From a phage, in sequence record PZ445521.1: a stretch of DNA of 64,000 nt, one strand, 5' to 3'. The notes under the pieces were generated by a model. That model did not search any database. It saw only the letters and a list, made by a program, of their open reading frames with translations, and was not told the DNA's origin. This document shows positions 1 to 62,534 of the stretch, piece by piece. The translations under genes were made by a program, and so were the position numbers. Each line of letters begins with the position of its first letter. Within the stretch, counting starts at the first letter, position 1.

Positions 1-255
1 CTGGCCAAATTGAATCACCTTCAGTTGACGTTTTAATTCTTTTATCATTTCTTCGTTCATCGCAATATAAAGATCGCGTAAAGCAGGTTTTAGCATGTCA
101 TTTATTATAGAACTAAATGGACATACATAATCTTTTCCTACGAGCTTTTTGGTGAATTCCATATCACAGAACTTAAATCCCGGCTCATTGGTATAAATTC
201 CCCAATTAGTTGACATCATTTTATTGGCATATTCTAGTGCCTGGATTTGATTCAT
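1..255 (-). CDS. hypothetical protein, N-terminal part (runs off window start)
   Basis: Minus-strand ATG at 255-253 opens a frame (MNQIQALEYANKMMSTNWGIYTNEPGF...) with no stop through position 1; not in ORF track because it has no stop in the window. Confidence 0.35.
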   Translation of the reverse strand, partial: MNQIQALEYANKMMSTNWGIYTNEPGFKFCDMEFTKKLVGKDYVCPFSSIINDMLKPALRDLYIAMNEEMIKELKRQLKVIQFGQ

Positions 256-287
256 AATTCCATCAATTTGAAACTTTTTAATATTCA

Positions 288-749
288 TTAGTAAAGGTCC
301 TCAGAGTAAAGTTCTTTTTCACTACCACCACGTTCAATACGTACTTGTCCAGCGTAAGTTGCAATAATCATTGCTTCTTCGCGAGTCCAATAATTACTAT
401 ATTGGTCAATAAATCCTTGGTCATCATCACAAACTTGCTGAGTAACTAATTGGGGTTTAACTACATCTAAAACTGCTGCCATATCTTTAGAATAATGACG
501 AGCACCTGGAATAATAAGAGTTCGTCCATCTTTTAATTTAAAACGGTTGGCTGCACAGACAATTCGTCGTTGATACTTTTGATTTTCATCCCAGTACGCA
601 GTCTGCCAACAAATTTCAGGAACTTCTTTCAGAATATCTTCTTCTGTGCATTTATAACCATGTGCTTTAAACTTTTGAACAAGACTTTCTGGAGTTTCAC
701 GAGATAAAGGAACATTCAGCATTTTTAAACGATTAATAAATGGGTTCAT
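288..749 (-). CDS. hypothetical protein, 153 aa
   Basis: ORF track; stop/start overlap with next gene; position downstream of motA. Confidence 0.55.
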
Positions 750-1075
750 TTAAACCATCCTTTAATACGTTGCCACAAAGTTTTCTGCTGAGCTTTGTTA
801 ACGCCAATTGAGCGAATAACCGGTTGAGATTCCTGGAATTCTTTATAATCGGCAAGGTAAATTTCGTAAGCTGCATCTGTAAAGGAACTTATCGCTGCCA
901 TGAAATTATTGCGAATACCTACTGGAGCATCTTTACTTTCACGAATAATCATGTATTTACCAGTCTTAATCTTTACAATAGTTCCAAGATAAGCTCCATG
1001 ATACCAGATGTCCCACCCCTCTTGAGTGGGTTCTGCGCAACGACGAAGTTCATTGACAATTTCTAACTTGTTCAT
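746..1075 (-). CDS. hypothetical protein, 109 aa (motA.1-like position)
   Basis: ORF track; 4-nt overlap with downstream ORF; directly downstream of motA. Confidence 0.55.
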
Positions 1076-1085
1076 TATTTATTCC

Positions 1086-1721
1086 TCACAGTTCAGATGC
1101 TACAGTGATTACAGCTTCAATGTTTTCTGCCGAGCGTTTAATGTCAAGATACACATTACCGTTTTTAGCGATTTTACATGACATTCCGATGTCAGTAAAT
1201 TTCTGAATATGATGTTCCATCATTTTGTATCCAAAAATTCGCATATTTCCATTGTTGTTAATTTCAAAATTACGAATTCCGTGGGTGCGTTTTTCTAAAA
1301 TAGCGAGATAGTTACTGCGGTAAGTTTCAACCTTTTTAAGAACAAATCCATTTTCATCTAAAAGTTTTAACATGAGGTCTTTATCTTCTTCCATATCAGA
1401 AGTAATCTCGCGAGCTTTACGAGTTGCTCGTTTTTTCAGTAGTTCCGGAGCATTTTCCTGTGCGTATAAAGTTGCTGCGTTTGAAATAATATCTTGCGCT
1501 TCGCCTGTGATGATTAATCCATCACCTGATTTCTCTACCAGGCCTTTTTTGATCAATACCCCAATATTACTATTAACTACTGCGTTACCTAAATCTGGAT
1601 GCACCTCACGAACTTCTGCAGCTGTAATGAAATCTTTCTTAGCAATAGTAATTAAAATCGCAGCAGTTTTTTCATTCAGAACATCGTTAGAAGCTTTGAT
1701 GATGTAAGTTACTTTAGACAT
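1086..1721 (-). CDS. motA: MotA, activator of middle transcription
   Basis: 211-aa ORF, same length as T4 MotA, sequence recognised; early promoter immediately upstream; synteny next to gene 52. Confidence 0.9.
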   Translation of the reverse strand: MSKVTYIIKASNDVLNEKTAAILITIAKKDFITAAEVREVHPDLGNAVVNSNIGVLIKKGLVEKSGDGLIITGEAQDIISNAATLYAQENAPELLKKRATRKAREITSDMEEDKDLMLKLLDENGFVLKKVETYRSNYLAILEKRTHGIRNFEINNNGNMRIFGYKMMEHHIQKFTDIGMSCKIAKNGNVYLDIKRSAENIEAVITVASEL

Positions 1722-1754
1722 TTTCTAATCTCCGTAATTCTGTATCAGTAGTTG

Positions 1755-1795
1755 ATAGTTGTATAGTACCACAGTATGCTTTGGTTGTAAACCGT
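1755..1795 (-). promoter_or_regulatory. early promoter, sigma70-type (-35 TTTACA, 17-bp spacer, -10 TACTAT)
   Basis: Plus-strand tgtaaa at 1786-1791 and atagta at 1763-1768, spacer exactly 17; A/T-rich element upstream; member of the repeated cassette. Confidence 0.6.
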
Positions 1796-1810
1796 TTTGT
1801 GAAAAAAATT

Positions 1811-1843
1811 TTAAAATAAAAAAGGGAGAGCCTCGGCTCTCCC
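1811..1843 (-). terminator. intrinsic terminator-like hairpin with U-tract
   Basis: Stem gggagagc...gctctccc at 1824-1843, followed on the minus strand by a run of U (plus-strand A-run 1811-1823). Confidence 0.55.
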
Positions 1844-1848
1844 TAAAA

Positions 1849-1998
1849 TTACTGCATGACTGTGATAACTGTCATGATAACACGTTGAATGCCGAACGCA
1901 AGAAGACCTCCTGCTACGGCTGGAACAACACCTACCCCCGCTAGTAAAATGCCGCCAGATACTAATGCTGCGCTTGTAATACCTATAAATGGACTCAT
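1849..1998 (-). CDS. small hydrophobic protein, 49 aa
   Basis: Read from DNA: ATG at 1998-1996 overlaps gene 52 stop (ATGA); GAGGAAA Shine-Dalgarno upstream; MSPFIGITSAALVSGGILLAGVGVVPAVAGGLLAFGIQRVIMTVITVMQ; length is a multiple of 3. Confidence 0.4.
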   Translation of the reverse strand: MSPFIGITSAALVSGGILLAGVGVVPAVAGGLLAFGIQRVIMTVITVMQ

Positions 1999-3323
1999 TT
2001 GATTTCCTCTAAATCTTTAGTGTATTCTGTAACTACATCAGTAGTTTTCCAATATTCGTTTTCTTCTTTCTTAGCTTTAGCTTCTTCAGCAAGTTTCTTT
2101 GCTTCGTCGGAAGTCATATGAAAAATATTCATTCCGACTAGTTTATCAACATAAGAAGAATACATATCAATTTTAGAAAGTTCTTCGGTCAGTTCTTTGC
2201 GAGTTTTACCCTGTACAACGATTTCACCTGAAATTACTTTCTTAATGAAATGTGCCTTGGCAAAGGCTAAACGAAATGCTGATTCAGTTTCTTTGATTTT
2301 GTTATCAATTCGTTTTTGGACATAAGTTTTACGAACTTCAACGAAGTCTTTGATTAAATCAACTACGTTATCGTAAACTTGTAGCTTTCCTTTCTCATTA
2401 ATAACGGTAATATTTTGGGAACGACGCTCAATCAACCCGAAGTCTTTCATAATTTTCGCGTGACGTTCTTCTTCGTTATCGCTCAAAGCGTATTCTTTGC
2501 GGAATTTAACTTTAAAGCCAAAACCATGCTCACCACAAGCATCATCCCATGTAATGAAGCCTTTATCTTCAAGTGGGTCTAAGATTTTACTCACATAAGT
2601 TTCACGATCATACTTATACGGAATCTCAGTGATGTGCATTTGAGTTCGTGAAGTAAACTTATATGTTCCACGAATTTCATATTGTCCATCAATTTCAACG
2701 ACTTCACCACGAAATTCTGGGAATTCTACCTTCGGTTTAGTTACTTTCTTTCCTTGAAGAGCTTGTAGTACAGCTTTCTTGACAGAAGAAACACTATGAG
2801 GAAGAATGTAAGTTGCATAACCAGTTGCAATACCGGAAACGCCATTAAGAAGAACAGTAGGAATAATAGGCAAATAGAAAGCAGGCGGAATGTGTTCTTT
2901 ATCTTGATGTACCGGAGCATACTCAGTATCTTTATATACACTATAGAAATTTTTACTTACACGAGCAAAAATATAACGACTTGCTGCTGCTTTTTGGACA
3001 GTACGAGAACCAAAGTTTCCTTGACCATCTAACAGAGGAAAGTTATTATTCCAAGTGTTAGCCATCAAAGCACCTGCGTCTTGCGCAGAGTTTTCACCAT
3101 GATGATATCCAAGGTCCGCTACACCACCTGCAATAGAAGCGAGTTTGTGAAACTTATCTTTATTTCCTCGTGCCAAATCAAGAGCTCGAGCAATAACAAA
3201 TCGTTGAACTGGCTTAAATCCATCAATCATATTTGGAATAGCACGATTTTCAACCGTGTACATAGCATAAGCCAATGCTTCATTATCAATGATACTTTTT
3301 AAATCGCGATTATTCAGTTGCAT
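1995..3323 (-). CDS. 52: topoisomerase II medium subunit gp52 (GyrA-like)
   Basis: 442-aa ORF, same length as T4 gp52; sequence recognised; synteny. Confidence 0.92.
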   Translation of the reverse strand: MQLNNRDLKSIIDNEALAYAMYTVENRAIPNMIDGFKPVQRFVIARALDLARGNKDKFHKLASIAGGVADLGYHHGENSAQDAGALMANTWNNNFPLLDGQGNFGSRTVQKAAASRYIFARVSKNFYSVYKDTEYAPVHQDKEHIPPAFYLPIIPTVLLNGVSGIATGYATYILPHSVSSVKKAVLQALQGKKVTKPKVEFPEFRGEVVEIDGQYEIRGTYKFTSRTQMHITEIPYKYDRETYVSKILDPLEDKGFITWDDACGEHGFGFKVKFRKEYALSDNEEERHAKIMKDFGLIERRSQNITVINEKGKLQVYDNVVDLIKDFVEVRKTYVQKRIDNKIKETESAFRLAFAKAHFIKKVISGEIVVQGKTRKELTEELSKIDMYSSYVDKLVGMNIFHMTSDEAKKLAEEAKAKKEENEYWKTTDVVTEYTKDLEEIK

Positions 3324-3327
3324 AAAT

Positions 3328-3468
3328 TTACCATACTAGTGAATGTAGTGCCATAATAACATCAGAAATGAAAAGCACGACTTGAATTAATCCGAACATT
3401 ACTCCATAATATAGTGCTACTAATAAAGTAGCAAGGGCTAATGAATAGCCCAAGATTTTCTTAATCAT
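3328..3468 (-). CDS. small hydrophobic protein, 46 aa
   Basis: Read from DNA: ATG overlaps ac stop (AATGATTAA); predicted MIKKILGYSLALATLLVALYYGVMFGLIQVVLFISDVIMALHSLVW; sits between ac and gene 52. Confidence 0.35.
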   Translation of the reverse strand: MIKKILGYSLALATLLVALYYGVMFGLIQVVLFISDVIMALHSLVW

Positions 3469-3619
3469 TAGTAGATAACAACACAAATGTTAAATATGCA
3501 CACATACCCTGAGCTAAAGCTTGCGAAAACACACTGCTGGCATCAATACAGATAGTTAAAACACATGCTACTATCCAACAAATAAATGAAATAACTCCTA
3601 ATAATTTTGCAATATTCAT
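3461..3619 (-). CDS. ac: Ac-like small membrane protein (acriflavine sensitivity), 52 aa
   Basis: Read from DNA: GAGGAAAAT-ATG at 3619; MNIAKLLGVISFICWIVACVLTICIDASSVFSQALAQGMCAYLTFVLLSTND; length and position between stp and 52 match T4 ac. Confidence 0.5.
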   Translation of the reverse strand: MNIAKLLGVISFICWIVACVLTICIDASSVFSQALAQGMCAYLTFVLLSTND

Positions 3620-3626
3620 ATTTTCC

Positions 3627-3707
3627 TCACTGGAGTCCGAAGACGCCTTTGGTTTTAAGATTGTTACGATAGAACTGCATCACGTGTTCGTTGTGGAAAT
3701 TACTCAT
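3627..3707 (-). CDS. stp: Stp, 26-aa peptide (activator of host PrrC anticodon nuclease in T4)
   Basis: Read from DNA: [26 protein letters not shown]; start overlaps ndd stop (TAATG); length 81 nt; matches T4 Stp as remembered. Confidence 0.7.
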
Positions 3708-4165
3708 TAATATGCCTGTAAAACAAATTTAAAGTTATCAGCCAACATACGGTTCATTTCTTCAAGTGTTTGATACTCAGAATGATGATTACGAGTAAAC
3801 GCCAAAGCTAACTGACCTTTACCAAATCCCGTCGTCAGAGGTTTCATCTTAGAAGCAGGCAGATAAAACACTGTGTATGGAACATTGTTATTTGCAATAG
3901 TACGCGCAAGTTGAGACCGGCGTTGACGAATATGACTTAAAACCGCACTGAATCCTTGCTTAGAACGCTGATTACCTACATAAAATCGTGCTGACACACA
4001 TGGATTACTAAATGGACGACCATCTAATTTACTTACTAAAAAGTAAAATCCAGGTTTAGATAAAATGTCTTTATGCGGAGTTCCCAAAAACCATTCACCG
4101 CCCTTGATTGTGCCAATAACAGTAGCGCCTGCATTATTCAGATCAGTAACAGTCATGTATTTCAT
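3707..4165 (-). CDS. ndd: Ndd-like nucleoid disruption protein
   Basis: ORF 3707-4213; chosen start MKYMTVTD has GAGGAAA 7 nt upstream, giving 152 aa (T4 Ndd about 151 aa); position upstream of stp. Confidence 0.6.
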
Positions 4166-4225
4166 ATTAATTTCCTCTAAATTATTTTCTACTCCAAGGC
4201 CGCATGAATACACACGGCCATTAAA

Positions 4226-4441
4226 TTACTCGTCGCAGTCGACGCTCAATTCCCAGAATTCTTCTACGGTATAAGTTTCAGTATCATTTTCAATACAGAA
4301 ACGTTCATTACTGTTATTTGCTAAAGTAGCGTTAACTGTCATTTTCTCGCTAGTGCTCTTAAGAGGTGAAATACGAATTAACTGATCACCATTATCTAAA
4401 CAAAAAATTTCACCAACTTTTACATCTTTAAAGCTTTTCAT
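4226..4441 (-). CDS. hypothetical protein, 71 aa
   Basis: ORF track; synteny block between ndd and denB. Confidence 0.5.
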   Translation of the reverse strand: MKSFKDVKVGEIFCLDNGDQLIRISPLKSTSEKMTVNATLANNSNERFCIENDTETYTVEEFWELSVDCDE

Positions 4442-4556
4442 AATTCACCTCAAGGAGTATAAAATCCAAATGCAGTTGTTGACCATCCCATCCAATATGG
4501 GAAATTTGCACCAATGTAAAACATAAGAATATAAAACCAACCGCTCAGCAAATTCA

Positions 4557-4775
4557 TCATTTTACACCGTTCCAAATTGTTTCAACCACAGATTTTAAAC
4601 CATTTTGATGAATATCCATTCCGACTACTGCCATCAAATAGATTCCAACTACAACTGAACCTAAGGCAAAAATCAGCATGAAAATGAATAAAGCCGGAAA
4701 AATATTATCGAAAAACCATTCAATAAATGTAAAAGCACTGCGTTTACGCTTCATATTTTCCTCACATAAATCCAA
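4557..4775 (-). CDS. small membrane protein, 72 aa
   Basis: ORF track; hydrophobic stretch LFIFMLIFALGSVVVGIYLMAVVG. Confidence 0.5.
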   Translation of the reverse strand: MDLCEENMKRKRSAFTFIEWFFDNIFPALFIFMLIFALGSVVVGIYLMAVVGMDIHQNGLKSVVETIWNGVK

Positions 4776-4875
4776 AGTAAACGTTTAATACATCAATCAT
4801 TAAAACGATTGGGAATATACTCAAAACTATTAGTATTATAACTACATTCCATATAGCTTTAACAATCTTTTTCAT
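4762..4875 (-). CDS. small membrane protein, 37 aa
   Basis: Track ORF 4762-5010 trimmed to the first ATG after the promoter (GGAGG Shine-Dalgarno, MKKIVKAIWNVVIILIVLSIFPIVLMIDVLNVYFGFM); upstream part of the track ORF is translated promoter. Confidence 0.35.
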   Translation of the reverse strand: MKKIVKAIWNVVIILIVLSIFPIVLMIDVLNVYFGFM

Positions 4876-4894
4876 TTTCTGTTCCTCCGTAGTT

Positions 4895-4935
4895 GATAGG
4901 GTAATAGTACCACGGAAGAACAGTCTTGTAAACAA
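4895..4935 (-). promoter_or_regulatory. early promoter cassette
   Basis: tgtaaa 4927-4932, atagta 4904-4909, 17-bp spacer. Confidence 0.55.
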
Positions 4936-5118
4936 CTTTTTTAAAAATATTCGTAATAAATGTGAATACCAATCACTACTGCCGAAACTTGTGCAACCAA
5001 CCATGCACACGCAATAAGTACAGAATTCAAAATTTTCATAATAACCTCATCACAAAAGTAAATGTTAAACAAATTACTGGAATACTAATTAACCAAACAA
5101 AACACCACCATAATGAAC

Positions 5119-5382
5119 TCATAGTTCAATCTCAGCGATTTTCATTTCACTACTATTAATAGCCGCTTTAAGACTATCTGAAAGAATTACATTCCAGTGG
5201 TCATTCATATGACCATTAACTAAGCGTGTAATTTCTTCAGGAGTTGAAAAATAAGGCTGATCAGACTCCCAATGCGATAATCCTAAGCGAGTATAAATCA
5301 TGCCTTCATCATCGCTAGAATATTCAACTGACACAAACTCATCAGTTATTTTATGTTTAGCGTAATAAAATTTAAATTTCAT
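5119..5382 (-). CDS. hypothetical protein, 87 aa
   Basis: Track ORF 5119-5484 trimmed to MKFKFYYAKHK after GGAGAATAAA; N-terminal extension is translated promoter/leader. Confidence 0.5.
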   Translation of the reverse strand: MKFKFYYAKHKITDEFVSVEYSSDDEGMIYTRLGLSHWESDQPYFSTPEEITRLVNGHMNDHWNVILSDSLKAAINSSEMKIAEIEL

Positions 5383-5409
5383 TTTATTCTCCAAATCCGT
5401 ATCAGTTGA

Positions 5410-5450
5410 TAGTTGTATAGTACCACGGTCCTTGTGGTATGTAAACTGTT
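5410..5450 (-). promoter_or_regulatory. early promoter cassette
   Basis: tgtaaa 5440-5445, atagta 5417-5422, 17-bp spacer, conserved leader. Confidence 0.55.
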
Positions 5451-5465
5451 TTGTGAAATTTTTTT

Positions 5466-6023
5466 TTAAATGGAAAGATACCATCCGTTGTAGTTGCTTT
5501 TTCTTACAACCTTACGAAGGTCTTCTCTGTCACCGATGAACTTCGGAGTGTACTGGATGACACCTGGATGAATTTCTTTAGTGTTGAATATAATTATACA
5601 GTCAGCGACTTGATGATTTAGAATGGGCCCTAGATTTATTCCAGAACCGTATGGATACTCTCCGCTGCATCCTGTTGTTACAGAAATCCAACGTGAGTCA
5701 GTTTGGTGTGTCTTAACTTCTACACGAAGCCCGCAGTATCTTGGATGCGCCAATACATCCCATGCGTATGTATACGGGTCATTAACATCCTCTTGGCCTT
5801 TATTGACATATCCGCTTAGCCAATCTGCTACAAAAAATTCTGCGTACACAGCGATACGACATCTTTCAATAACTTCTGCTTTATCCTGGTTCGGGTTTTG
5901 TTTTAAAGAGTATCTTGCTGTATCAGCAATTTTGACCTTCATTTCACTAGTCAAGTCACTGTTCGATAGGGTAAATGTCGGAATCTGAAATAGTCTCTGT
6001 AAACCCGGATTCGTTTTCTGCAT
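5466..6023 (-). CDS. denB: DenB-like endonuclease IV
   Basis: 185-aa ORF, same length as T4 DenB; position near rIIB. Confidence 0.6.
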   Translation of the reverse strand: MQKTNPGLQRLFQIPTFTLSNSDLTSEMKVKIADTARYSLKQNPNQDKAEVIERCRIAVYAEFFVADWLSGYVNKGQEDVNDPYTYAWDVLAHPRYCGLRVEVKTHQTDSRWISVTTGCSGEYPYGSGINLGPILNHQVADCIIIFNTKEIHPGVIQYTPKFIGDREDLRKVVRKSNYNGWYLSI

Positions 6024-6285
6024 TTAGACTTTCCTTTTTACCGCTGAGATAAGCGTTATATACTTTAAGAGTGCCATAATAAATTCGGTCATTTTCATCT
6101 AAAGACTCGCGGTCAAGTTCATCGAGCTCCTTTTTATCCATGACTATAACATCATTACAGTAAAGAAACCCAAGTTTTTCGTGACCAAACTCAAATTTAT
6201 TACAGTACACAATATTAGCGTGATGATTTCCGTGCAGTTTAATCTCTTTTATGTCGGAATCACCGATATTCATACAATAAATCAT
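5956..6285 (-). CDS. hypothetical protein, 109 aa
   Basis: ORF track; 3-prime end overlaps denB start by 68 nt. Confidence 0.5.
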   Translation of the reverse strand: MIYCMNIGDSDIKEIKLHGNHHANIVYCNKFEFGHEKLGFLYCNDVIVMDKKELDELDRESLDENDRIYYGTLKVYNAYLSGKKESLNAENESGFTETISDSDIYPIEQ

Positions 6286-6294
6286 AATTTTTCC

Positions 6295-6317
6295 TTAAAA
6301 CAAAAGGGCCGAAGCCC
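6295..6317 (-). terminator. tetraloop hairpin with U-tract
   Basis: gggccgaagccc at 6306-6317 (GGGCUUCGGCCC on the transcript) followed by a U-run. Confidence 0.5.
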
Positions 6318-6323
6318 TTTATT

Positions 6324-6518
6324 TTACTTGAATTGTGCAATTCTTTTCTCTAGACATTCAGCATAAGATTTCATTGAGATGAACTGTGAAAGCAGCAGTT
6401 CTTGCTCAACTGCACTAACTGTTAGAAACTTTGCGCTTTCTAAAAATTTACTCAGTGCATTAATTTTGAGCATTAATTGATCGTATTCTTCTTTTACTCG
6501 TGCTTGATAACCTAACAT
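6324..6518 (-). CDS. hypothetical protein, 64 aa
   Basis: ORF track; between rIIB and denB. Confidence 0.5.
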   Translation of the reverse strand: MLGYQARVKEEYDQLMLKINALSKFLESAKFLTVSAVEQELLLSQFISMKSYAECLEKRIAQFK

Positions 6519-6546
6519 AATTTTCCTTAGTTAAGGGCCGAAGCCC

Positions 6547-7485
6547 TTATTTAAATTGTTCAGTAACGTCTTCAACTACTTCGTATTGGCAGGTACGCAT
6601 TTTAGCATCGTTGTAATCAATCGGAATTGATACTACATCACGCGGATGTACTTTAACTTTTACGACTCGGCTGGTTGAACTGCCAAAGTGACGAATATAA
6701 GATTTAGAACACACATGCAGACCACGAGAACAAGTTTGTGTATCATCGTCATTCACACGAGTACGTGGCATTTTAACTACTTTACCCGGACTGTTATCAA
6801 AGGTGTTTGAGTGACAGTCAAAGTAATTGCTGCGAACTACTTTCCAAGCATAGAAGTAACCATCTTCTGTAATTTCAATATCGTTTGCTACCAAGAAATC
6901 AAAGAGTCGAGATACCGCTTTTTGGCTTGGGTTTTCCAGCAGATTTTCCAAGAACGGAAAATAAAATTCAAAGTTTTCGCCTTTTTCCATCGAATCAAGA
7001 ATACGATCAACTAAACCAGACCGCAATTCAATATTTTGATAGAACAAGCTTCCACCTTCAATTCGAACATCGCCGGAAATATATTTTTCAACAGCGCGAC
7101 GAACATTAATTTTTTGTGCAGCTTCTTCCAGCCTATCCGCTACAAGCAGATTAAGAATTTCCTGGAAGTTTGAATGAGTATTAGGAGTTGCGTTATAAGT
7201 TACACCGTCAACAGTAATTGAAATGAATTTTTTAGATGCATTCCAAATAATGTCAGATTTAGCAACTGGAGCAATAACTGCATCGCTATTAACTTTAACT
7301 GTAATATCACCGCTAATAGTAACTTTAGAGCGTTTAGCTTCTTCAGCATTTTTCAAAACACGACGGATTGTGTCAACCGATACATCCTTCCAATAAGCTA
7401 ATTCCTGTTGGGTATAATTACCACTTGAATACAGTTTAACAATTTCAGCTTGTTCGTTTTTGGTCAGGCATTTAATATTGTACAT
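6547..7485 (-). CDS. rIIB: RIIB
   Basis: 312-aa ORF, same length as T4 rIIB; directly downstream of rIIA. Confidence 0.9.
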   Translation of the reverse strand: MYNIKCLTKNEQAEIVKLYSSGNYTQQELAYWKDVSVDTIRRVLKNAEEAKRSKVTISGDITVKVNSDAVIAPVAKSDIIWNASKKFISITVDGVTYNATPNTHSNFQEILNLLVADRLEEAAQKINVRRAVEKYISGDVRIEGGSLFYQNIELRSGLVDRILDSMEKGENFEFYFPFLENLLENPSQKAVSRLFDFLVANDIEITEDGYFYAWKVVRSNYFDCHSNTFDNSPGKVVKMPRTRVNDDDTQTCSRGLHVCSKSYIRHFGSSTSRVVKVKVHPRDVVSIPIDYNDAKMRTCQYEVVEDVTEQFK

Positions 7486-7496
7486 AATTTTCCTTA

Positions 7497-14240: not shown

Positions 14241-14739
14241 TTACACGAACATTAATCACTGCGCTACGAGGAACTACAGAGTATTCTCCAGCATGAACTA
14301 CGTTCAGAAGTTCAACGCCATCTTCAATCCACTGGTCAGTTACCCAACCACCGACCGGATTCGCGAATGGACGACGAATGTAAACCGCCTTACACAACAA
14401 ATCAGTCGGGTCTTCAATTTTTTCAACTGGTGCCACATACATAGAAACTAAATCCATATCAATATGGAATTTTTCCTGTTCTTCTTTTTCAATTTCTGTC
14501 AATAGACTAAAATCTTTTTCATAAATAATAAGCGATGACACCATTCCATAATAGTTTCTAATTTCAATATACATCATGCCGATAAGAATTCCGCTATTAA
14601 CACTAATAACAGTAAAAGGATATCCGCCAGTTAAAGCAAGAAGTTCACAAAACTTATTATGAGCTGTATTAGACAGTACCGGAAAATTCTTAATTTCATC
14701 AAATTTTTTCAATTGATAAACAGCATTATTTTTAATCAT
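14236..14739 (-). CDS. MotB-like paralog, 167 aa
   Basis: Shares YITDQWVEDGVKLYNAVFLGTYKVIPESW / WVTDQWIEDGVELLNVVHAGEYSVVPRSA with the 13671-14162 ORF. Confidence 0.55.
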   Translation of the reverse strand: MIKNNAVYQLKKFDEIKNFPVLSNTAHNKFCELLALTGGYPFTVISVNSGILIGMMYIEIRNYYGMVSSLIIYEKDFSLLTEIEKEEQEKFHIDMDLVSMYVAPVEKIEDPTDLLCKAVYIRRPFANPVGGWVTDQWIEDGVELLNVVHAGEYSVVPRSAVINVRVS

Positions 14740-16733: not shown

Positions 16734-18053
16734 TCACACATAAAACACATCATAACGACCACGTGTTACACCAACATAAAGAAGCTGCTGAGCTAGTTCA
16801 GCATCTGCATAATGAATACAAGGCGTATAAATGAAAGCACGGTCTACAGACATACCCTGGGCTTTATGGAATGTTGATGCAGGAAGTGCTTTCACTTTAC
16901 TAAACTGTGATTTAGCATCCCAAAAATCACTCCACGGAGCCTTTCCGCCTTTATTCCAATTTTTATAAGTTTCTGCCGTTTTACCTAAAAACAGGTTAAA
17001 CTTATATAGCTCTTCATCAGATGAAATTATTTTAATCTTTTCACGATAATATTCATCATCGCCGTAAGTTTCTACTGTTAAATCCCAATGACGAATTAAG
17101 TATTCTCCAGGAACACCACGAGCTTTAACAAACGTTGATGTATACTCTGCTTCTATAATACGAACTAATTGTCCATTATTAAAAATAATTTCTGATACCG
17201 GTTTTCCGTCAATTTTATACGTTTTAATTAACGGTTCTTGCATTACAATAATTTCACCGACAATAAAGTCTTTATCAGTTTCAAAAATCTTTTTGCGAAT
17301 AATATTGTTTAACTTATCAACAGATTTATTCGTAAATGCCATTACGCGATTTTCAAACAAATCATCTAATGATTTTACGATTGAAAAATAATTTACCATA
17401 AAATCACGTAAAGCGGTATCACCAGTAAATCCACGTACTCCATGCCCGTCAACAACTTTATCATAAATCCACTTACCGTTGCGAACATCAGTAGCTACAT
17501 CAATAATAGGAGCATTACTGCGTTTAACTTCAGTAAGTTCACACTGATAAAAATCTTTGTGTGTAAAGAATGGACTGATATAAGCAGTATTTTCTCCTGG
17601 GTCAACAGGTCTAATTTGCTTATTATCGCCTATTCCAATTATAGTACACCACGGTGGAATAGTTGAAAGCAAAATTTTGAAGAGCTTTCTATCATACATT
17701 GACACTTCGTCGCAGATTAATACCCTGCATTTAGCTAAATCTGGTACTTCCTTCTGTTCAAAAAGAACGTTTTCTTCATACGTAACTGGGTTAATTTTAA
17801 GAATACTGTGAATAGTACTCGCTTCTTTCCCTGACAGTTTTGAAAGAATCTTTTTAGCTGCATGAGTAGGAGCTGCTAAAATAATACCAGTTTCACCCGT
17901 AGATATTAAAGCTTCAATGATGAATTTTGTAAGAGTAGTCTTACCAGTACCAGCAGGTCCATTAATAGTTACATGATGTTTCTTTTCTTTAATAGCCCTC
18001 ATAACGATGTTAAAGGCATTTTTCTGGCCTTCTGTCAAATCATCAAATGTCAT
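16734..18053 (-). CDS. dda: Dda DNA helicase (SF1)
   Basis: 439-aa ORF, same length as T4 Dda; Walker A GPAGTGKTT; synteny. Confidence 0.88.
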   Translation of the reverse strand: MTFDDLTEGQKNAFNIVMRAIKEKKHHVTINGPAGTGKTTLTKFIIEALISTGETGIILAAPTHAAKKILSKLSGKEASTIHSILKINPVTYEENVLFEQKEVPDLAKCRVLICDEVSMYDRKLFKILLSTIPPWCTIIGIGDNKQIRPVDPGENTAYISPFFTHKDFYQCELTEVKRSNAPIIDVATDVRNGKWIYDKVVDGHGVRGFTGDTALRDFMVNYFSIVKSLDDLFENRVMAFTNKSVDKLNNIIRKKIFETDKDFIVGEIIVMQEPLIKTYKIDGKPVSEIIFNNGQLVRIIEAEYTSTFVKARGVPGEYLIRHWDLTVETYGDDEYYREKIKIISSDEELYKFNLFLGKTAETYKNWNKGGKAPWSDFWDAKSQFSKVKALPASTFHKAQGMSVDRAFIYTPCIHYADAELAQQLLYVGVTRGRYDVFYV

Positions 18054-22653: not shown

Positions 22654-22899
22654 TTATTCACCAGTTACTTTCCACAAATCTTCATTTGCAGCAATCCATT
22701 CAGTACGTTGATTTTCTTCATATACTGTAGAATATGCTGCTTTTTCTGAAGGGAATGTCTGGTAATGAGCTCCAGAAATTTTGTGAACGTCAGAATAAAG
22801 AGGGAAAGCTACGGAAATTTCCTTTCCTTCAATTTTCTTATTTCCATCTAATTTCTGCTCAAATGTTTTGATATTAACATAACCGCGAGTACTAGCCAT
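22654..22899 (-). CDS. soc: small outer capsid protein Soc
   Basis: 81-aa ORF recognised as T4 Soc; late promoter TATAAATA about 30 nt upstream. Confidence 0.85.
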   Translation of the reverse strand: MASTRGYVNIKTFEQKLDGNKKIEGKEISVAFPLYSDVHKISGAHYQTFPSEKAAYSTVYEENQRTEWIAANEDLWKVTGE

Positions 22900-22929
22900 G
22901 TAATTCTCCTTTTATTTAAATTACATGAT

Positions 22930-22937
22930 TATTTATA
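22930..22937 (-). promoter_or_regulatory. late promoter core TATAAATA
   Basis: Plus-strand tatttata at 22930-22937 is TATAAATA on the minus strand, upstream of soc. Confidence 0.5.
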
Positions 22938-22982
22938 ATAAATTCTCGCGGCTTTTAAGTCGTCGTTTAAATAAACGAGCTA

Positions 22983-23501
22983 TTAATAGCCTCGATCTTG
23001 ACGTGCGAAATTTTCGGCATTTTTCAGATAATAAAGTTTAAAGATTTCCTCAGCTGACATTCCAAGAGCAATAAATTTATTCATAAAAAAGTGAAATTGG
23101 TCAATCAGTTCAAATTTAATTTCAAGCTGATCTTCAGGAGATAAGTCTTGAATTTTCTTGGATTGCATTTCAGAATAACGTTTCTTCCAAGGTTTCCATA
23201 CGGCAGAAGCTTCTTTTTCACCATTACTCATACCACCAAGAGAAGTATATAGCTCGCGAGTTTCATCTGCGATATAATCGTCTTGGTTTCGCAGCCAAGC
23301 AAGAACTTCTCCTGCGGTTTCAAGTGAATCAGGATGACGATTTGTTTCTGGCTTATCATTAGCCAAACGAATCTGTAAAGACCGCTGCATATCAAGCATA
23401 ACCTGCAATGGGTCTTTTTCATCACCGAGAATATCCCAGTATTCATTTTGAGCTTTATCAACACCTTCGATCAAATGAGCGCATTCATTAAAGTGAGCCA
23501 T
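22983..23501 (-). CDS. 56: dCTPase/dUTPase gp56 (MazG-like)
   Basis: Track ORF 22983-23594 trimmed to MAHFNECAHL (AGGAAA Shine-Dalgarno), giving 172 aa against T4 gp56 171 aa. Confidence 0.8.
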   Translation of the reverse strand: MAHFNECAHLIEGVDKAQNEYWDILGDEKDPLQVMLDMQRSLQIRLANDKPETNRHPDSLETAGEVLAWLRNQDDYIADETRELYTSLGGMSNGEKEASAVWKPWKKRYSEMQSKKIQDLSPEDQLEIKFELIDQFHFFMNKFIALGMSAEEIFKLYYLKNAENFARQDRGY

Positions 23502-23529
23502 TATTTTTCCTTTCAATTCATGGGTTAGT

Positions 23530-23562
23530 AGATTAATTATACAATAAATATATAAAGCAATA
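23530..23562 (-). promoter_or_regulatory. middle promoter (MotA box TTGCTTTA, 11 bp, TATAAT)
   Basis: Plus-strand taaagcaa 23553-23560 and attata 23536-23541; upstream of gene 56. Confidence 0.55.
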
Positions 23563-23572
23563 AGGAGGACAT

Positions 23573-23773
23573 ATGGTACAAAAATTAATGGCACTTGTTG
23601 ATGCCATAAAAGGTAATAAGAAACGTATAGCTTTTACTATTTCTGCTATGGTAGGAATTTTACTCTGGAACTTTATTCTATCACCTGTTGCGATTGCACA
23701 TGGTATTAATATTCCAGTAGTTACTCTTGATACATTCGTAGATTTAGCATTTGCTTTAGTTGGGTTAATTTAA
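23573..23773 (+). CDS. small membrane protein, 66 aa (plus strand)
   Basis: AAGGAGGA Shine-Dalgarno 4-5 nt before ATG; two hydrophobic helices; stop overlaps primase stop; only well-supported plus-strand ORF in the window. Confidence 0.4.
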   Translation: MVQKLMALVDAIKGNKKRIAFTISAMVGILLWNFILSPVAIAHGINIPVVTLDTFVDLAFALVGLI

Positions 23774-24798
23774 ATCTTGGCATATTTAGATAGCCGCATT
23801 TTAGCCATCAACCCCTGGGCAATATTATTTTTCATATATTCCATAATTTGTTCAGTGGTTGCACCTTCCTTTCTAATCATATCATTAACATCTTTTGATT
23901 TCCAGGGAGATTTATCCCAAAACATAACCCTTTCTCCTGCATCAACTAATTTAGTCATTCGCTTAATAGTGTCAGGATGACGAGGTTCATTATCTAAAAC
24001 CCACACACGTCTATCTTTAAATGGAACAACTTCTAGGTCTAATTGACCACCCGTAATAGCTATACCATTTTCAATAAAAAGTGAATCTATAGGTCCTTCT
24101 AGAACATATACATCACCATCTTTAACTCGTTCTACTCCATAGATTTTTGTTGCCTCAGGATAAGCTTTGATGGTGATATATTTTTGAGGAGCATCTTTCT
24201 TTAATGCACGTCCTTGAAAAGACTCAGCTTTTCCATTAGCATTATAAATTGGAATAACAAGACGAGGCTCAGAAATTTCCTTTTTATATGTTCCCGGTGC
24301 TATACTATTAACTAATTTAGGCCATTCGGTTGTAAACCAAAGATATTTCCATTTATCCTTTGGAATACAACGAGCTTTTACGTATTTTATAATTGGATGG
24401 TCTTCCGCCAGTTTATCTAATCTAACACATGACGGAAGAGATTTAATTATTTTCTTCTCAGGTTGTTTAGGAAGTTCTTTAGGTTTTTCTACTGGACGAC
24501 TTTTACCTTTTTCTTTTCTTATTTCAAAGATATACTCACGATATAAATCAGGTTCAAACTCCTTTAAATATATTCCGATTGGTGCATGATAGTTACAGTT
24601 ATAACAATGAATATTTCCTTCATTATTATCGCCATAATACCATCCACGAGCTTTATTCTGGTCGGTTTTTGAATCTCCACAAACAGGGCATCTAAACCGT
24701 AATTTAAAAGTTGAACTATTATTTACTTGTGTGAATTTAGGTAAATGGGCTAATGCACGATACGCAAACTCATTATCAATCCAAGGTATTGATGACAT
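23770..24798 (-). CDS. 61: DNA primase gp61
   Basis: 342-aa ORF, same length as T4 gp61; zinc ribbon CPVCGDS ... CYNC; TOPRIM-like EGPIDS / LDNE. Confidence 0.9.
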   Translation of the reverse strand: MSSIPWIDNEFAYRALAHLPKFTQVNNSSTFKLRFRCPVCGDSKTDQNKARGWYYGDNNEGNIHCYNCNYHAPIGIYLKEFEPDLYREYIFEIRKEKGKSRPVEKPKELPKQPEKKIIKSLPSCVRLDKLAEDHPIIKYVKARCIPKDKWKYLWFTTEWPKLVNSIAPGTYKKEISEPRLVIPIYNANGKAESFQGRALKKDAPQKYITIKAYPEATKIYGVERVKDGDVYVLEGPIDSLFIENGIAITGGQLDLEVVPFKDRRVWVLDNEPRHPDTIKRMTKLVDAGERVMFWDKSPWKSKDVNDMIRKEGATTEQIMEYMKNNIAQGLMAKMRLSKYAKI

Positions 24799-24800
24799 TT

Positions 24801-24965
24801 TTACTCTTCTTTTTCTTTAGATTCCTCTTTTTTCTTTTTAGGAATCTGTTCAGGACCTTTATTTACTACAGCACCTGATGTTGTTCCAGTAGAGATATTT
24901 TCAGGATTACCACCTGAATCTCCAGCAACCATATCTTCTTTAATAAATTCTTTATATGTTTTCAT
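24801..24965 (-). CDS. hypothetical protein, 54 aa (61.1-like)
   Basis: Read from DNA: MKTYKEFIKEDMVAGDSGGNPENISTGTTSGAVVNKGPEQIPKKKKEESKEKEE; TAATATG junction with upstream gene. Confidence 0.5.
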   Translation of the reverse strand: MKTYKEFIKEDMVAGDSGGNPENISTGTTSGAVVNKGPEQIPKKKKEESKEKEE

Positions 24966-43528: not shown

Positions 43529-43549
43529 TTAATATCCTCATTGTTTTGG

Positions 43550-43580
43550 TTTATTTTACCAAAAATTTATAAAGCAATAT
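43550..43580 (-). promoter_or_regulatory. middle promoter (MotA box TTGCTTTA, 11 bp, TAAAAT)
   Basis: Plus-strand taaagcaa 43570-43577 and atttta 43553-43558. Confidence 0.5.
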
Positions 43581-43581
43581 A

Positions 43582-43595
43582 GGAGCCGAAGCTCC
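43582..43595 (-). terminator. tetraloop hairpin
   Basis: ggagc cgaa gctcc at 43582-43595. Confidence 0.45.
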
Positions 43596-43771
43596 TATCC
43601 GCATAATACGCCATACAAAGGCTCATTAGAACTTCTAAATTTTATGCGCTTATATGTTATAGTTCCTTCTGCTTTAGCTTTATCATAAGACTCTTTAAAG
43701 AGTCTCATCATTTCCTCTTTAGAGGAACGAATTTTATTATAATCTATTTCAGAAGTCTGGGTGTTCATCTT

Positions 43772-50625: not shown

Positions 50626-50667
50626 AATAAAACCCTTACCTTAAATAGATAAGGGTATTTATTATTT

Positions 50668-62207: not shown

Positions 62208-62332
62208 TACATACTCCTCTGAATCATATCAATAATGTTGTTCACCAGATTATAAGTAAACATTGGGTAATTATATTGAATCACCACATACACAACAAAC
62301 AAAACTTTCATTCTCTTCTCCTTGGCAGTTGA

Positions 62333-62370
62333 CAAGATTACTATACCATAACCTTGCCAACTTGTAAACC
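62333..62370 (-). promoter_or_regulatory. early promoter (-35 TTTACA, -10 TATAGT)
   Basis: tgtaaa 62362-62367, actata 62339-62344, 17-bp spacer. Confidence 0.5.
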
Positions 62371-62534
62371 ATTAAATGACGTTTTCGATAAAATTCTGAA
62401 GCTTTGTATGAGCATCAACCATGATTTTCATTTCTTCCTTTGCGAAAGCTGTACCTCTTTCACGAGAAGAACATTCATAGTCAGAAACTGCATTAGCATA
62501 TTCTTCAATTAGCTTCATTAAAAACATCTGCTTT

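Follow-up and report, generated by a model that had tools for sequence, protein, structure and literature searches.

Between gene 56 (dCTPase) and gene 61 (DNA primase), both of which lie on the minus strand, the stretch of phage DNA analysed here (PZ445521.1, 64,000 nt; hereafter the window) carries a short open reading frame on the plus strand, together with transcription signals on either strand (Table 1). A comparison over 2 kb (22900-24900) shows 100% identity between the window and Shigella phage JK38 (MK962755.1), a Tequatrovirus, in whose record the ORF is JK38_00030, annotated "hypothetical protein"; in relatives it goes by the names RB32ORF030w and RB69ORF029w (phrog_2024). The structural claims that an earlier note had made about this ORF are all supported. 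It encodes 66 amino acids on the plus strand between the two genes, with the start and stop codons where they had been placed, and its end, described as lying 3 nt inside the primase stop, is essentially right, as the two CDS features share the 4 nt TTAA, a tail-to-tail overlap that is present in most homologous loci. The ORF had also been called the only convincing plus-strand gene of the window, and the JK38 record bears this out in that, of its first 89 CDS (record bases 1-50000, corresponding to window positions 7497-57496), no other lies on that strand; when all of the window was scanned for ORFs, none of the others on the plus strand combined an ATG, a Shine-Dalgarno site and a place free of minus-strand coding. 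As had been stated, dam and segF, both present in T4, are missing here, and JK38 has neither. The idea that the ORF occupies the place of dam is rejected, as T4 has dam and the ORF together. Three things had been missed: the T4 copy next to dam, the existing annotation as a hypothetical protein, and a late-promoter box belonging to the ORF itself.

Table 1. Features of the gene 56-gene 61 interval and its flanks, in window coordinates.
Feature	Position	Strand	Basis or remark
Gene 56 (dCTPase), left neighbour	22983..23501	-	JK38 annotation
TATAAT, -10 element of the gene 56 middle promoter	23536..23541	-	predicted start about 23529
AATAAATA, T4 late-promoter box, A(-13) variant of TATAAATA	23543..23550	+	7/8 match; start predicted
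MotA box ATTGCTTTA of the gene 56 middle promoter (9/9)	23553..23561	-	orthologue of T4 P56/69, the oriA promoter
Shine-Dalgarno site AAGGAGGA, 3 nt before the ATG	23562..23569	+	sequence
CDS, 66-aa small membrane protein (ATG 23573, TAA 23771-23773)	23573..23773	+	ORF list, purifying selection
Terminator-like hairpin ATGGCAT-CAACAA-GTGCCAT (23607..23588) with T-run TAATTTTTGT	23578..23607	-	downstream of gene 61
Transmembrane helix IAFTISAMVGILLWNFILSPVAIA, codons 19-42	23627..23698	+	hydropathy, AlphaFold helix 16-42, invariant columns
Codons 43-66: HG-x3-P loop and short hydrophobic C-terminal helix (52-63)	23699..23770	+	predicted periplasmic
TTAA, in which the stop codons of the ORF (+) and of gene 61 (-) overlap	23770..23773	both	
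Gene 61 (DNA primase), convergent right neighbour	23770..24798	-	JK38 annotation

A lack of conservation in related phages would have told against the earlier note, but the ORF is clearly conserved: tblastn found matches in 698 phage records, and in 935 when a distant family member served as the query. Residues 2-66 align with positions 1-65 of the 65-position phrog_2024 profile ("unknown function") at E = 4.1e-31, and five distant members match the same profile with E values of 3e-27 to 2e-15. A homologue on the plus strand, tail-to-tail with the primase gene, is present in all nine lineages examined, which comprise eight named Tevenvirinae genera and one unclassified Klebsiella phage: Tequatrovirus (JK38, T4, RB51), the RB69 type (RB69, a Mosigvirus, and F2, a Tequatrovirus according to its record), Gaprivervirus (VR26, which has two tandem paralogues), Dhakavirus (PSD9), Karamvirus (CkP1), Moonvirus (KM16), Jiaodavirus (JD18), Kanagawavirus (CIP9) and the Klebsiella phage Clarke_MM3. 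RB69ORF029w and RB32ORF030w share its family (E = 4e-31), length, position, orientation, late box and Shine-Dalgarno site, and nothing of substance sets them apart; the ORF is a member of this family. What varies is the upstream side, where the next gene is gene 56 itself (JK38, RB51, RB69), dam (T4), dam plus a gene for 186 amino acids (L011), or a small MazG-like gene. In the more distant T4-like phages examined (Krischvirus kaaroe, Muldoonvirus, a Slopekvirus-like Klebsiella phage, an Acinetobacter Lazarusvirus and an Aeromonas Biquartavirus), the next minus-strand gene follows directly after primase, this being gene 56 in Muldoon and kaaroe, and there is no room for the ORF, which among the phages sampled is therefore confined to the Tevenvirinae. 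A scan of IMG/VR with the single protein returned five close loci, and a family HMM run against the six-frame translation of the window found the ORF alone, with no paralogue.

The ORF is a genuine protein-coding gene, and its frame is under purifying selection. The nine Tequatrovirus copies differ at 22 sites, 12 of which fall at codon position 3, eight at position 1 and two at position 2, and the position-1 changes are mostly exchanges of Val and Ile or synonymous changes in Leu codons. Values of dN/dS (Nei-Gojobori) are 0.135 for JK38 against L012, 0.12 for T4 against L012, 0.10 for F2 against RB69 and 0.07 for PSD9 against VR26b; between PSD9 and Clarke_MM3, where synonymous sites are saturated, pS is 0.77 and pN is 0.18. 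The synonymous excess within the ORF is supported by Fisher tests with p values from 3e-4 to 1e-12. At the local composition, 67 open codons would arise with a probability of about 0.013 (1.3% per start), and the frame is open, under strong purifying selection, in every lineage examined. Its length (63-69 aa) and a W-N...P...G...P motif are kept at protein identities of 22-54%, a distance at which the DNA is saturated.

The signals for translation lie close in front of the ATG. The ribosome-binding site that had been noted is strong, and the arrangement AAGGAGG-N3-9-ATG is unique in the 64 kb, both strands considered. Most homologous loci have AGGAGGA, with GGAG-core variants in F2/RB69 and CIP9, and the distance from the Shine-Dalgarno site to the ATG is short (3-4 nt).

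Late promoters of T4, whose use depends on gp55, gp33, gp45 and replication, need no -35 element, and their box lies at -13 to -6. This box is an 8-bp TATA element at about -10. Of the 50 late promoters listed for T4, 32 match it perfectly, nine carry A at -13 and the remainder mostly show single deviations; variant promoters are weaker, and some of the listed sites are unproven in vivo (PMC2988020). As the early and middle transcripts of T4 are all of the opposite polarity, and late ones may be of either polarity (PMC2988020), a plus-strand gene at this position needs a promoter of its own. A box of the form nATAAATA stands 12-25 nt upstream of the ATG in all lineages: it is the perfect TATAAATA in PSD9, CIP9 and Clarke, AATAAATA in JK38, RB51, RB69 and F2, GATAAATA in T4, CATAAATA in VR26 and JD18, and TATTAAATA in CkP1 and KM16. 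The match is thus perfect in three lineages only, and the boxes of Karam- and Moonvirus have two mismatches. The downstream paralogue of VR26 has no late box and is presumably co-transcribed with the first. No perfect TATAAATA was found upstream of the ORF in the window, whose only copy belongs to soc. Even the heptamer ATAAATA is scarce there, with five occurrences on both strands against 40.6 +/- 6.4 expected, the lowest count among the 21 A5T2 heptamers (21-71 for the rest); two of the other four copies precede soc and gene 49, which in T4 both have late promoters. The pairing of ATAAATA with a Shine-Dalgarno site that begins AAGGAGGA and lies 13-14 nt further on is also the only upstream element common to all three Tequatrovirus contexts. 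In the window the box is followed directly by TATAA, which provides the AT-rich segment expected just downstream of a T4 late box.

Because the box recurs in every lineage and its heptamer is so rare elsewhere in the window, the ORF is apparently a gp55-dependent late gene, as judged from sequence motifs, and we infer that its own late box explains how a plus-strand gene within the early region is transcribed. RNA polymerase carrying gp55 would recognise AATAAATA and start near 23556, producing a leader of 17 nt that would hold the strongest Shine-Dalgarno site of the window and from which the 66-aa protein would be translated. A likeness in the window is soc (22654..22899, minus strand), which in T4 too is a small gene inside the early cluster with a late box of its own, here TATAAATA at 22930-22937, some 30 nt upstream and thus a short distance before the Shine-Dalgarno site and ATG. 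The two genes differ in that soc, which codes for a soluble protein decorating the capsid, shares the strand of the genes around it, whereas the ORF opposes its neighbours, has a box matching at 7 of 8 positions and encodes a membrane protein.

With regard to the protein, the earlier note had described two hydrophobic helices. One of them stands, as there is a single clear transmembrane stretch at about residues 19-42; the second amounts to a predicted helix of 12 residues only (52-63). Hydropathy is highest over residues 19-42 (windowed means of about 1.5-2.3), with KGNKKR just before, and the last 22 residues, two of them Asp, are of moderate hydrophobicity. The C-terminus itself (...FVDLAFALVGLI) is hydrophobic and has no basic residues, and residue 53 is acidic in most members of the family. 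AlphaFold2, working from a shallow alignment, predicts helices at 2-12, 16-42 and 52-63 with a mean pLDDT of 76. Across 11 aligned sequences from the nine lineages W32, N33, P38, G44, P48 and G64 are invariant, and A40 nearly so. Membrane helices that carry an Asn at mid-length usually associate with other helices through it, and the invariant mid-helix Trp-Asn pair suggests that the protein works by such association, its partner being either a second copy or a different membrane protein.

By the positive-inside rule the topology should be N-in/C-out. The Lys-rich N-terminal part (KGNKKR) would thus remain in the cytoplasm, residues ~19-42 would cross the inner membrane, and the P-x-A-x-A|HG-x3-P motif and the short C-terminal helix would face the periplasm. 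A cleavable Sec signal has a charged n-region, an h-region of about 7-15 residues, a helix breaker near -5 and, at -3 and -1, small residues. In the conserved P-x-A-x-(A/S/T)|(H/Q/N/Y)-G there is a resemblance to the c-region of signal-peptidase substrates, and the possible A-x-A|H site falls between codons 42 and 43; the n-region is present as KGNKKR, the invariant Pro would be at -5, Ala at -3 (in all but the RB69 type) and A, S or T at -1. However, the hydrophobic stretch, at ~19-24 residues, is long for a cleavable signal peptide and looks more like that of a signal anchor. The periplasmic part would either stay attached as a signal-anchored tail or, less likely, be freed by signal peptidase as a peptide of 24 residues. 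The semi-tryptic peptide that cleavage after A42 would leave is HGINIPVVTLDTFVDLAFALVGLI.

Taken jointly, the reading that the ORF is a real gene, transcribed late and encoding a membrane protein, has in our estimate a probability of roughly 0.78.

The earlier note had placed a MotA-dependent middle promoter for gene 56 in the same DNA, and this assignment holds: the MotA box ATTGCTTTA matches at nine of nine positions, an 11-nt spacer separates it from TATAAT, and 34 nt further on comes the ATG of gene 56. The arrangement fits the MotA-box consensus (a/t)(a/t)(a/t)TGCTTtA at 12 +/- 1 bp from TAtaaT (PMC2988021). In T4 the start of P56/69 has been mapped to 16813 (PMC2988021). The distance between TATAAT and the gene 56 ATG is the same in JK38 and T4, which puts the start 28 nt upstream, as mapped in T4, and by sequence and position the promoter is to be regarded as the orthologue of T4 P56/69, the site of oriA according to the T4 record. 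The 11-nt spacer of the middle promoter encloses the late box in JK38, so that the first bases of the predicted late transcript include the MotA box. Replacing the late box AATAAATA by AACAAATA would leave the length of the P56 spacer unchanged. In T4 about 0.9 kb, occupied by dam, separates the late box from P56, and in RB69 and F2 the MotA box lies upstream of the late box; since dam separates the two in T4, their overlap in JK38 reflects compaction and is no general feature.

A second minus-strand element, the hairpin with its T-run downstream of gene 61, sits in codons 2-12 of the ORF. Its stem of 7 bp (3 GC) is kept in both the MFE and the centroid fold, and the hairpin is kept in the five Tequatrovirus loci scanned, reaching 8-11 bp in other Tequatroviruses; it is absent from the loci scanned in other genera. 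TransTermHP independently calls it a terminator in phage SA21RB. Codons 2-12 may double as a terminator-like hairpin for transcripts of gene 61, and the minus strand of the same 70 bp also holds the MotA-dependent promoter of gene 56, the P56/69/oriA orthologue. The locus is a compact case in that within some 70 bp a putative late promoter faces a middle promoter on the opposite strand, in T4 that of an origin.

It might then be asked if the unit acts mainly as RNA, antisense to the primase mRNA and, in phages without dam, occluding P56/69/oriA, with the peptide being secondary. The ORF does overlap the primase stop, and no plus-strand terminator was found before ~27424, so that for ~3.6 kb nothing would end a late transcript, which must therefore run antisense into gene 61; such RNA would help to shut off early functions, and the late box does lie inside the spacer of the middle promoter. 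Yet the boxes of T4 and RB69 are arranged without this overlap, and as their late box sits outside the P56 spacer, occlusion cannot be the general function. Purifying selection, moreover, acts on the amino-acid sequence, which argues that the protein itself matters. We consider a mainly RNA-level role unlikely, although antisense transcription could nonetheless occur as a side effect.

Another reading has a real gene whose expression is early or constitutive and driven by some promoter, of sigma-70 or other type, that does not depend on gp55; this seems to us distinctly unlikely. In most lineages the box does deviate from TATAAATA, and AT-rich DNA offers many weak -10-like hexamers. Against this, a scan found no plus-strand sigma-70-like promoter upstream of the ORF, the known early and middle transcripts of T4 run the other way (PMC2988020), nATAAATA at a fixed short distance is the only upstream element conserved across both the Tequatrovirus contexts and the genera, and ATAAATA is strongly purged from the rest of the window.

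What such a late membrane protein might do is less easily approached. Pfam, NCBIfam, PADLOC, PDB profile and BFVD (Foldseek) searches gave no homologue of known function, and searches of 5.8 billion protein clusters and, with phmmer, of 1.84 billion representatives gave nothing beyond the family itself. Two phmmer matches were rejected as due to chance, one to a repeat protein of 1822 aa with 18 repeats (P0032) and the other to a beta-propeller repeat protein containing 'LLWNF..SSPAVANG' (P0036).

Being small, membrane-spanning and furnished with late-type signals, the ORF product resembles a holin, and its homologue in phage OE5505 is labelled 'Holin' in UniProt (A0A482MZV5). This identity is highly improbable. 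No holin family in Pfam, NCBIfam or PHROGs is matched, the family being phrog_2024; the neighbours are dCTPase and primase and not a lysis cassette; all other cluster members read are named 'hypothetical'; and structural matches in BFVD that carry the name holin appear only at E > 9. Holins typically end in a charged, hydrophilic cytoplasmic tail, whereas the C-terminus here is hydrophobic and acidic, and T-even phages already possess a well-characterised holin, T.

The T4 antiholin RI consists of a membrane segment at the N-terminus and, in the periplasm, a folded domain of ~70 aa. Like the ORF product, it is small, comes from T-even phages and joins an N-terminal membrane segment to a periplasmic C-terminal part, the latter only predicted for the ORF. 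The two differ in that no sequence similarity is detectable, the window holding no paralogue of the ORF, and only 24 residues follow the membrane segment, where RI has its ~70-aa domain, and for these reasons a SAR-domain antiholin of the RI kind was rejected as a candidate. In a SAR-domain antiholin the transmembrane domain is weakly hydrophobic and rich in Gly, Ala, Ser and Thr, and the folded periplasmic domain binds the holin; in the ORF family the share of Ala, Gly, Ser, Thr and Asn in the transmembrane segment is borderline, with 38% for JK38 and values reaching 46% (RB69, JD18). A further comparison is with Imm and Sp, envelope proteins of T4 that act in superinfection exclusion and are made early. 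Both are small membrane or periplasmic proteins from the same early-region neighbourhood (they are annotated in JK38), but their genes lie among the early and middle ones of the minus strand, and they have no similarity to the ORF, which has late-type signals.

It is tempting to speculate that the protein modulates an event at the envelope late in infection, such as the timing or inhibition of lysis, late superinfection exclusion or a membrane-bound step of assembly; this is a tentative proposal, drawn by inference only, and the odds are against any such specific role. If it were a late envelope factor, it would be an additional player in the biology of T-even lysis or exclusion. A fuller version of the proposal, which we regard as rather doubtful, is that this overlooked T-even late gene supplies a hydrophobic envelope peptide of 24 residues, signal-anchored or released, and that its promoter also makes antisense RNA to primase and, in phages without dam, competes with the oriA middle promoter. 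Were that so, a factor as yet unrecognised, with a possible part in lysis timing, lysis inhibition or the late exclusion of superinfecting phage, might have been absent from those T4 screens and proteome searches that used the reference gene list.

Barely credible, finally, is that the ORF is an untranslated chance frame in DNA conserved for the gene 61 3' UTR and terminator and for the gene 56 promoter and oriA: the locus does hold a minus-strand middle promoter and a terminator-like hairpin, the curated T4 reference lacks the ORF, and an open frame of 67 codons is not out of reach of chance at 1.3% per start, but substitutions track the codon phase of the ORF (dN/dS 0.07-0.14, p down to 1e-12), the frame, its 63-69 aa and the invariant W-N...P...G...P motif persist at 22-54% identity, the ORF persists outside Tequatrovirus where the hairpin is absent, and every copy has a strong Shine-Dalgarno site.

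As a conserved hypothetical (RB69ORF029w, RB32ORF030w, phrog_2024) the gene was known before, and it is annotated as such in most relatives and in hundreds of genomes. What is new here is the codon-level proof that it is coding, its conserved late-promoter box and its absence from the T4 reference. The finding is mainly a correction of annotation, and nothing points to an unusual mechanism. The T4 copy lies at NC_000866 17738..17938 (+) and is left unannotated in both NC_000866.4 and AF158101.6; newer automatic annotations of T4 include it. These curated records thus show an "empty" gap of 310 bp where a gene under purifying selection sits, and as T4 is the reference model for this group of phages, reference-based studies would overlook it. 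The exact T4 protein sequence had no NCBI accession in a collection of 15 billion proteins, and in the literature nothing was found on the ORF, its RB69 and RB32 names or phrog_2024. In T4 coordinates, the counterpart of the predicted late start would be at about 17722 of NC_000866.

Judged from heptamer counts, the core of the T4 late-promoter box, ATAAATA, is strongly purged from the early region represented in the window, where five copies are observed against about 41 expected and where its count is the lowest among all A5T2 heptamers. The perfect box, TATAAATA, occurs once in the window and belongs to soc, and the gene 49 ATG lies 31 nt downstream of the copy that reads AATAAATA. The minus-strand gene JK38_00011 of the Shigella phage JK38 record contains CATAAATA on the plus strand, at 14520-14527 (+); there is no ORF downstream of it, and it could act as an antisense late promoter.

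ATAAATA copies and stretches lacking a minus-strand ORF of at least 60 aa in the window
Feature	Position	Strand	Gene	Reading
ATAAATA copy	1076-1082	-		
ATAAATA copy	14521-14527	+		
ATAAATA copy	22930-22936	-	soc	
ATAAATA copy	23544-23550	+	small ORF	
ATAAATA copy	50656-50662	-	gene 49	AATAAATA
ORF-free stretch	1722-1994			
ORF-free stretch	3324-3706			
ORF-free stretch	43529-43771			
ORF-free stretch	62208-62534			

In the phage VR26 locus, the small plus-strand gene is present as two tandem paralogues, the first (1995-2192 in locus coordinates) of the T4/RB69 type and the second (2201-2401) of the Dhakavirus/Clarke type; as the late box precedes only the first copy, the arrangement resembles a late operon of two genes. 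The T4 orthologue, at 17738..17938 (+), lies between dam and gene 61, where the curated reference (NC_000866) has a 310-bp gap without annotation (17626-17934), and the large protein collection lists no NCBI accession for the exact T4 protein.

Between gene 56 and the small ORF lies what is clearly a hot spot for insertions. In an IMG/VR locus (UViG_2974787500), a 186-aa gene at 841-1401 (-) is inserted between dam (62-841) and the small ORF; in Pfam it matches the restriction endonucleases DpnII and BanI weakly and below threshold (E about 0.005-0.009), and it is possibly a remnant, or else a diverged GATC nuclease that partners dam.

At a broader scale, the equivalents of window 22900-24900 align as two pieces in many close relatives (T6, RB18, phiD1 and others), with about 342 bp extra and two additional small annotated genes somewhere within the 2-kb stretch. 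Window coordinates equal those of the JK38 record plus 7496, and the first 7.5 kb (1-7496) therefore falls before base 1 of the deposited record, which may start at a permuted position or come from another isolate. Small genes, RNAs or regulatory regions may be located in the four stretches of 240-380 nt that lack a minus-strand ORF of at least 60 aa.
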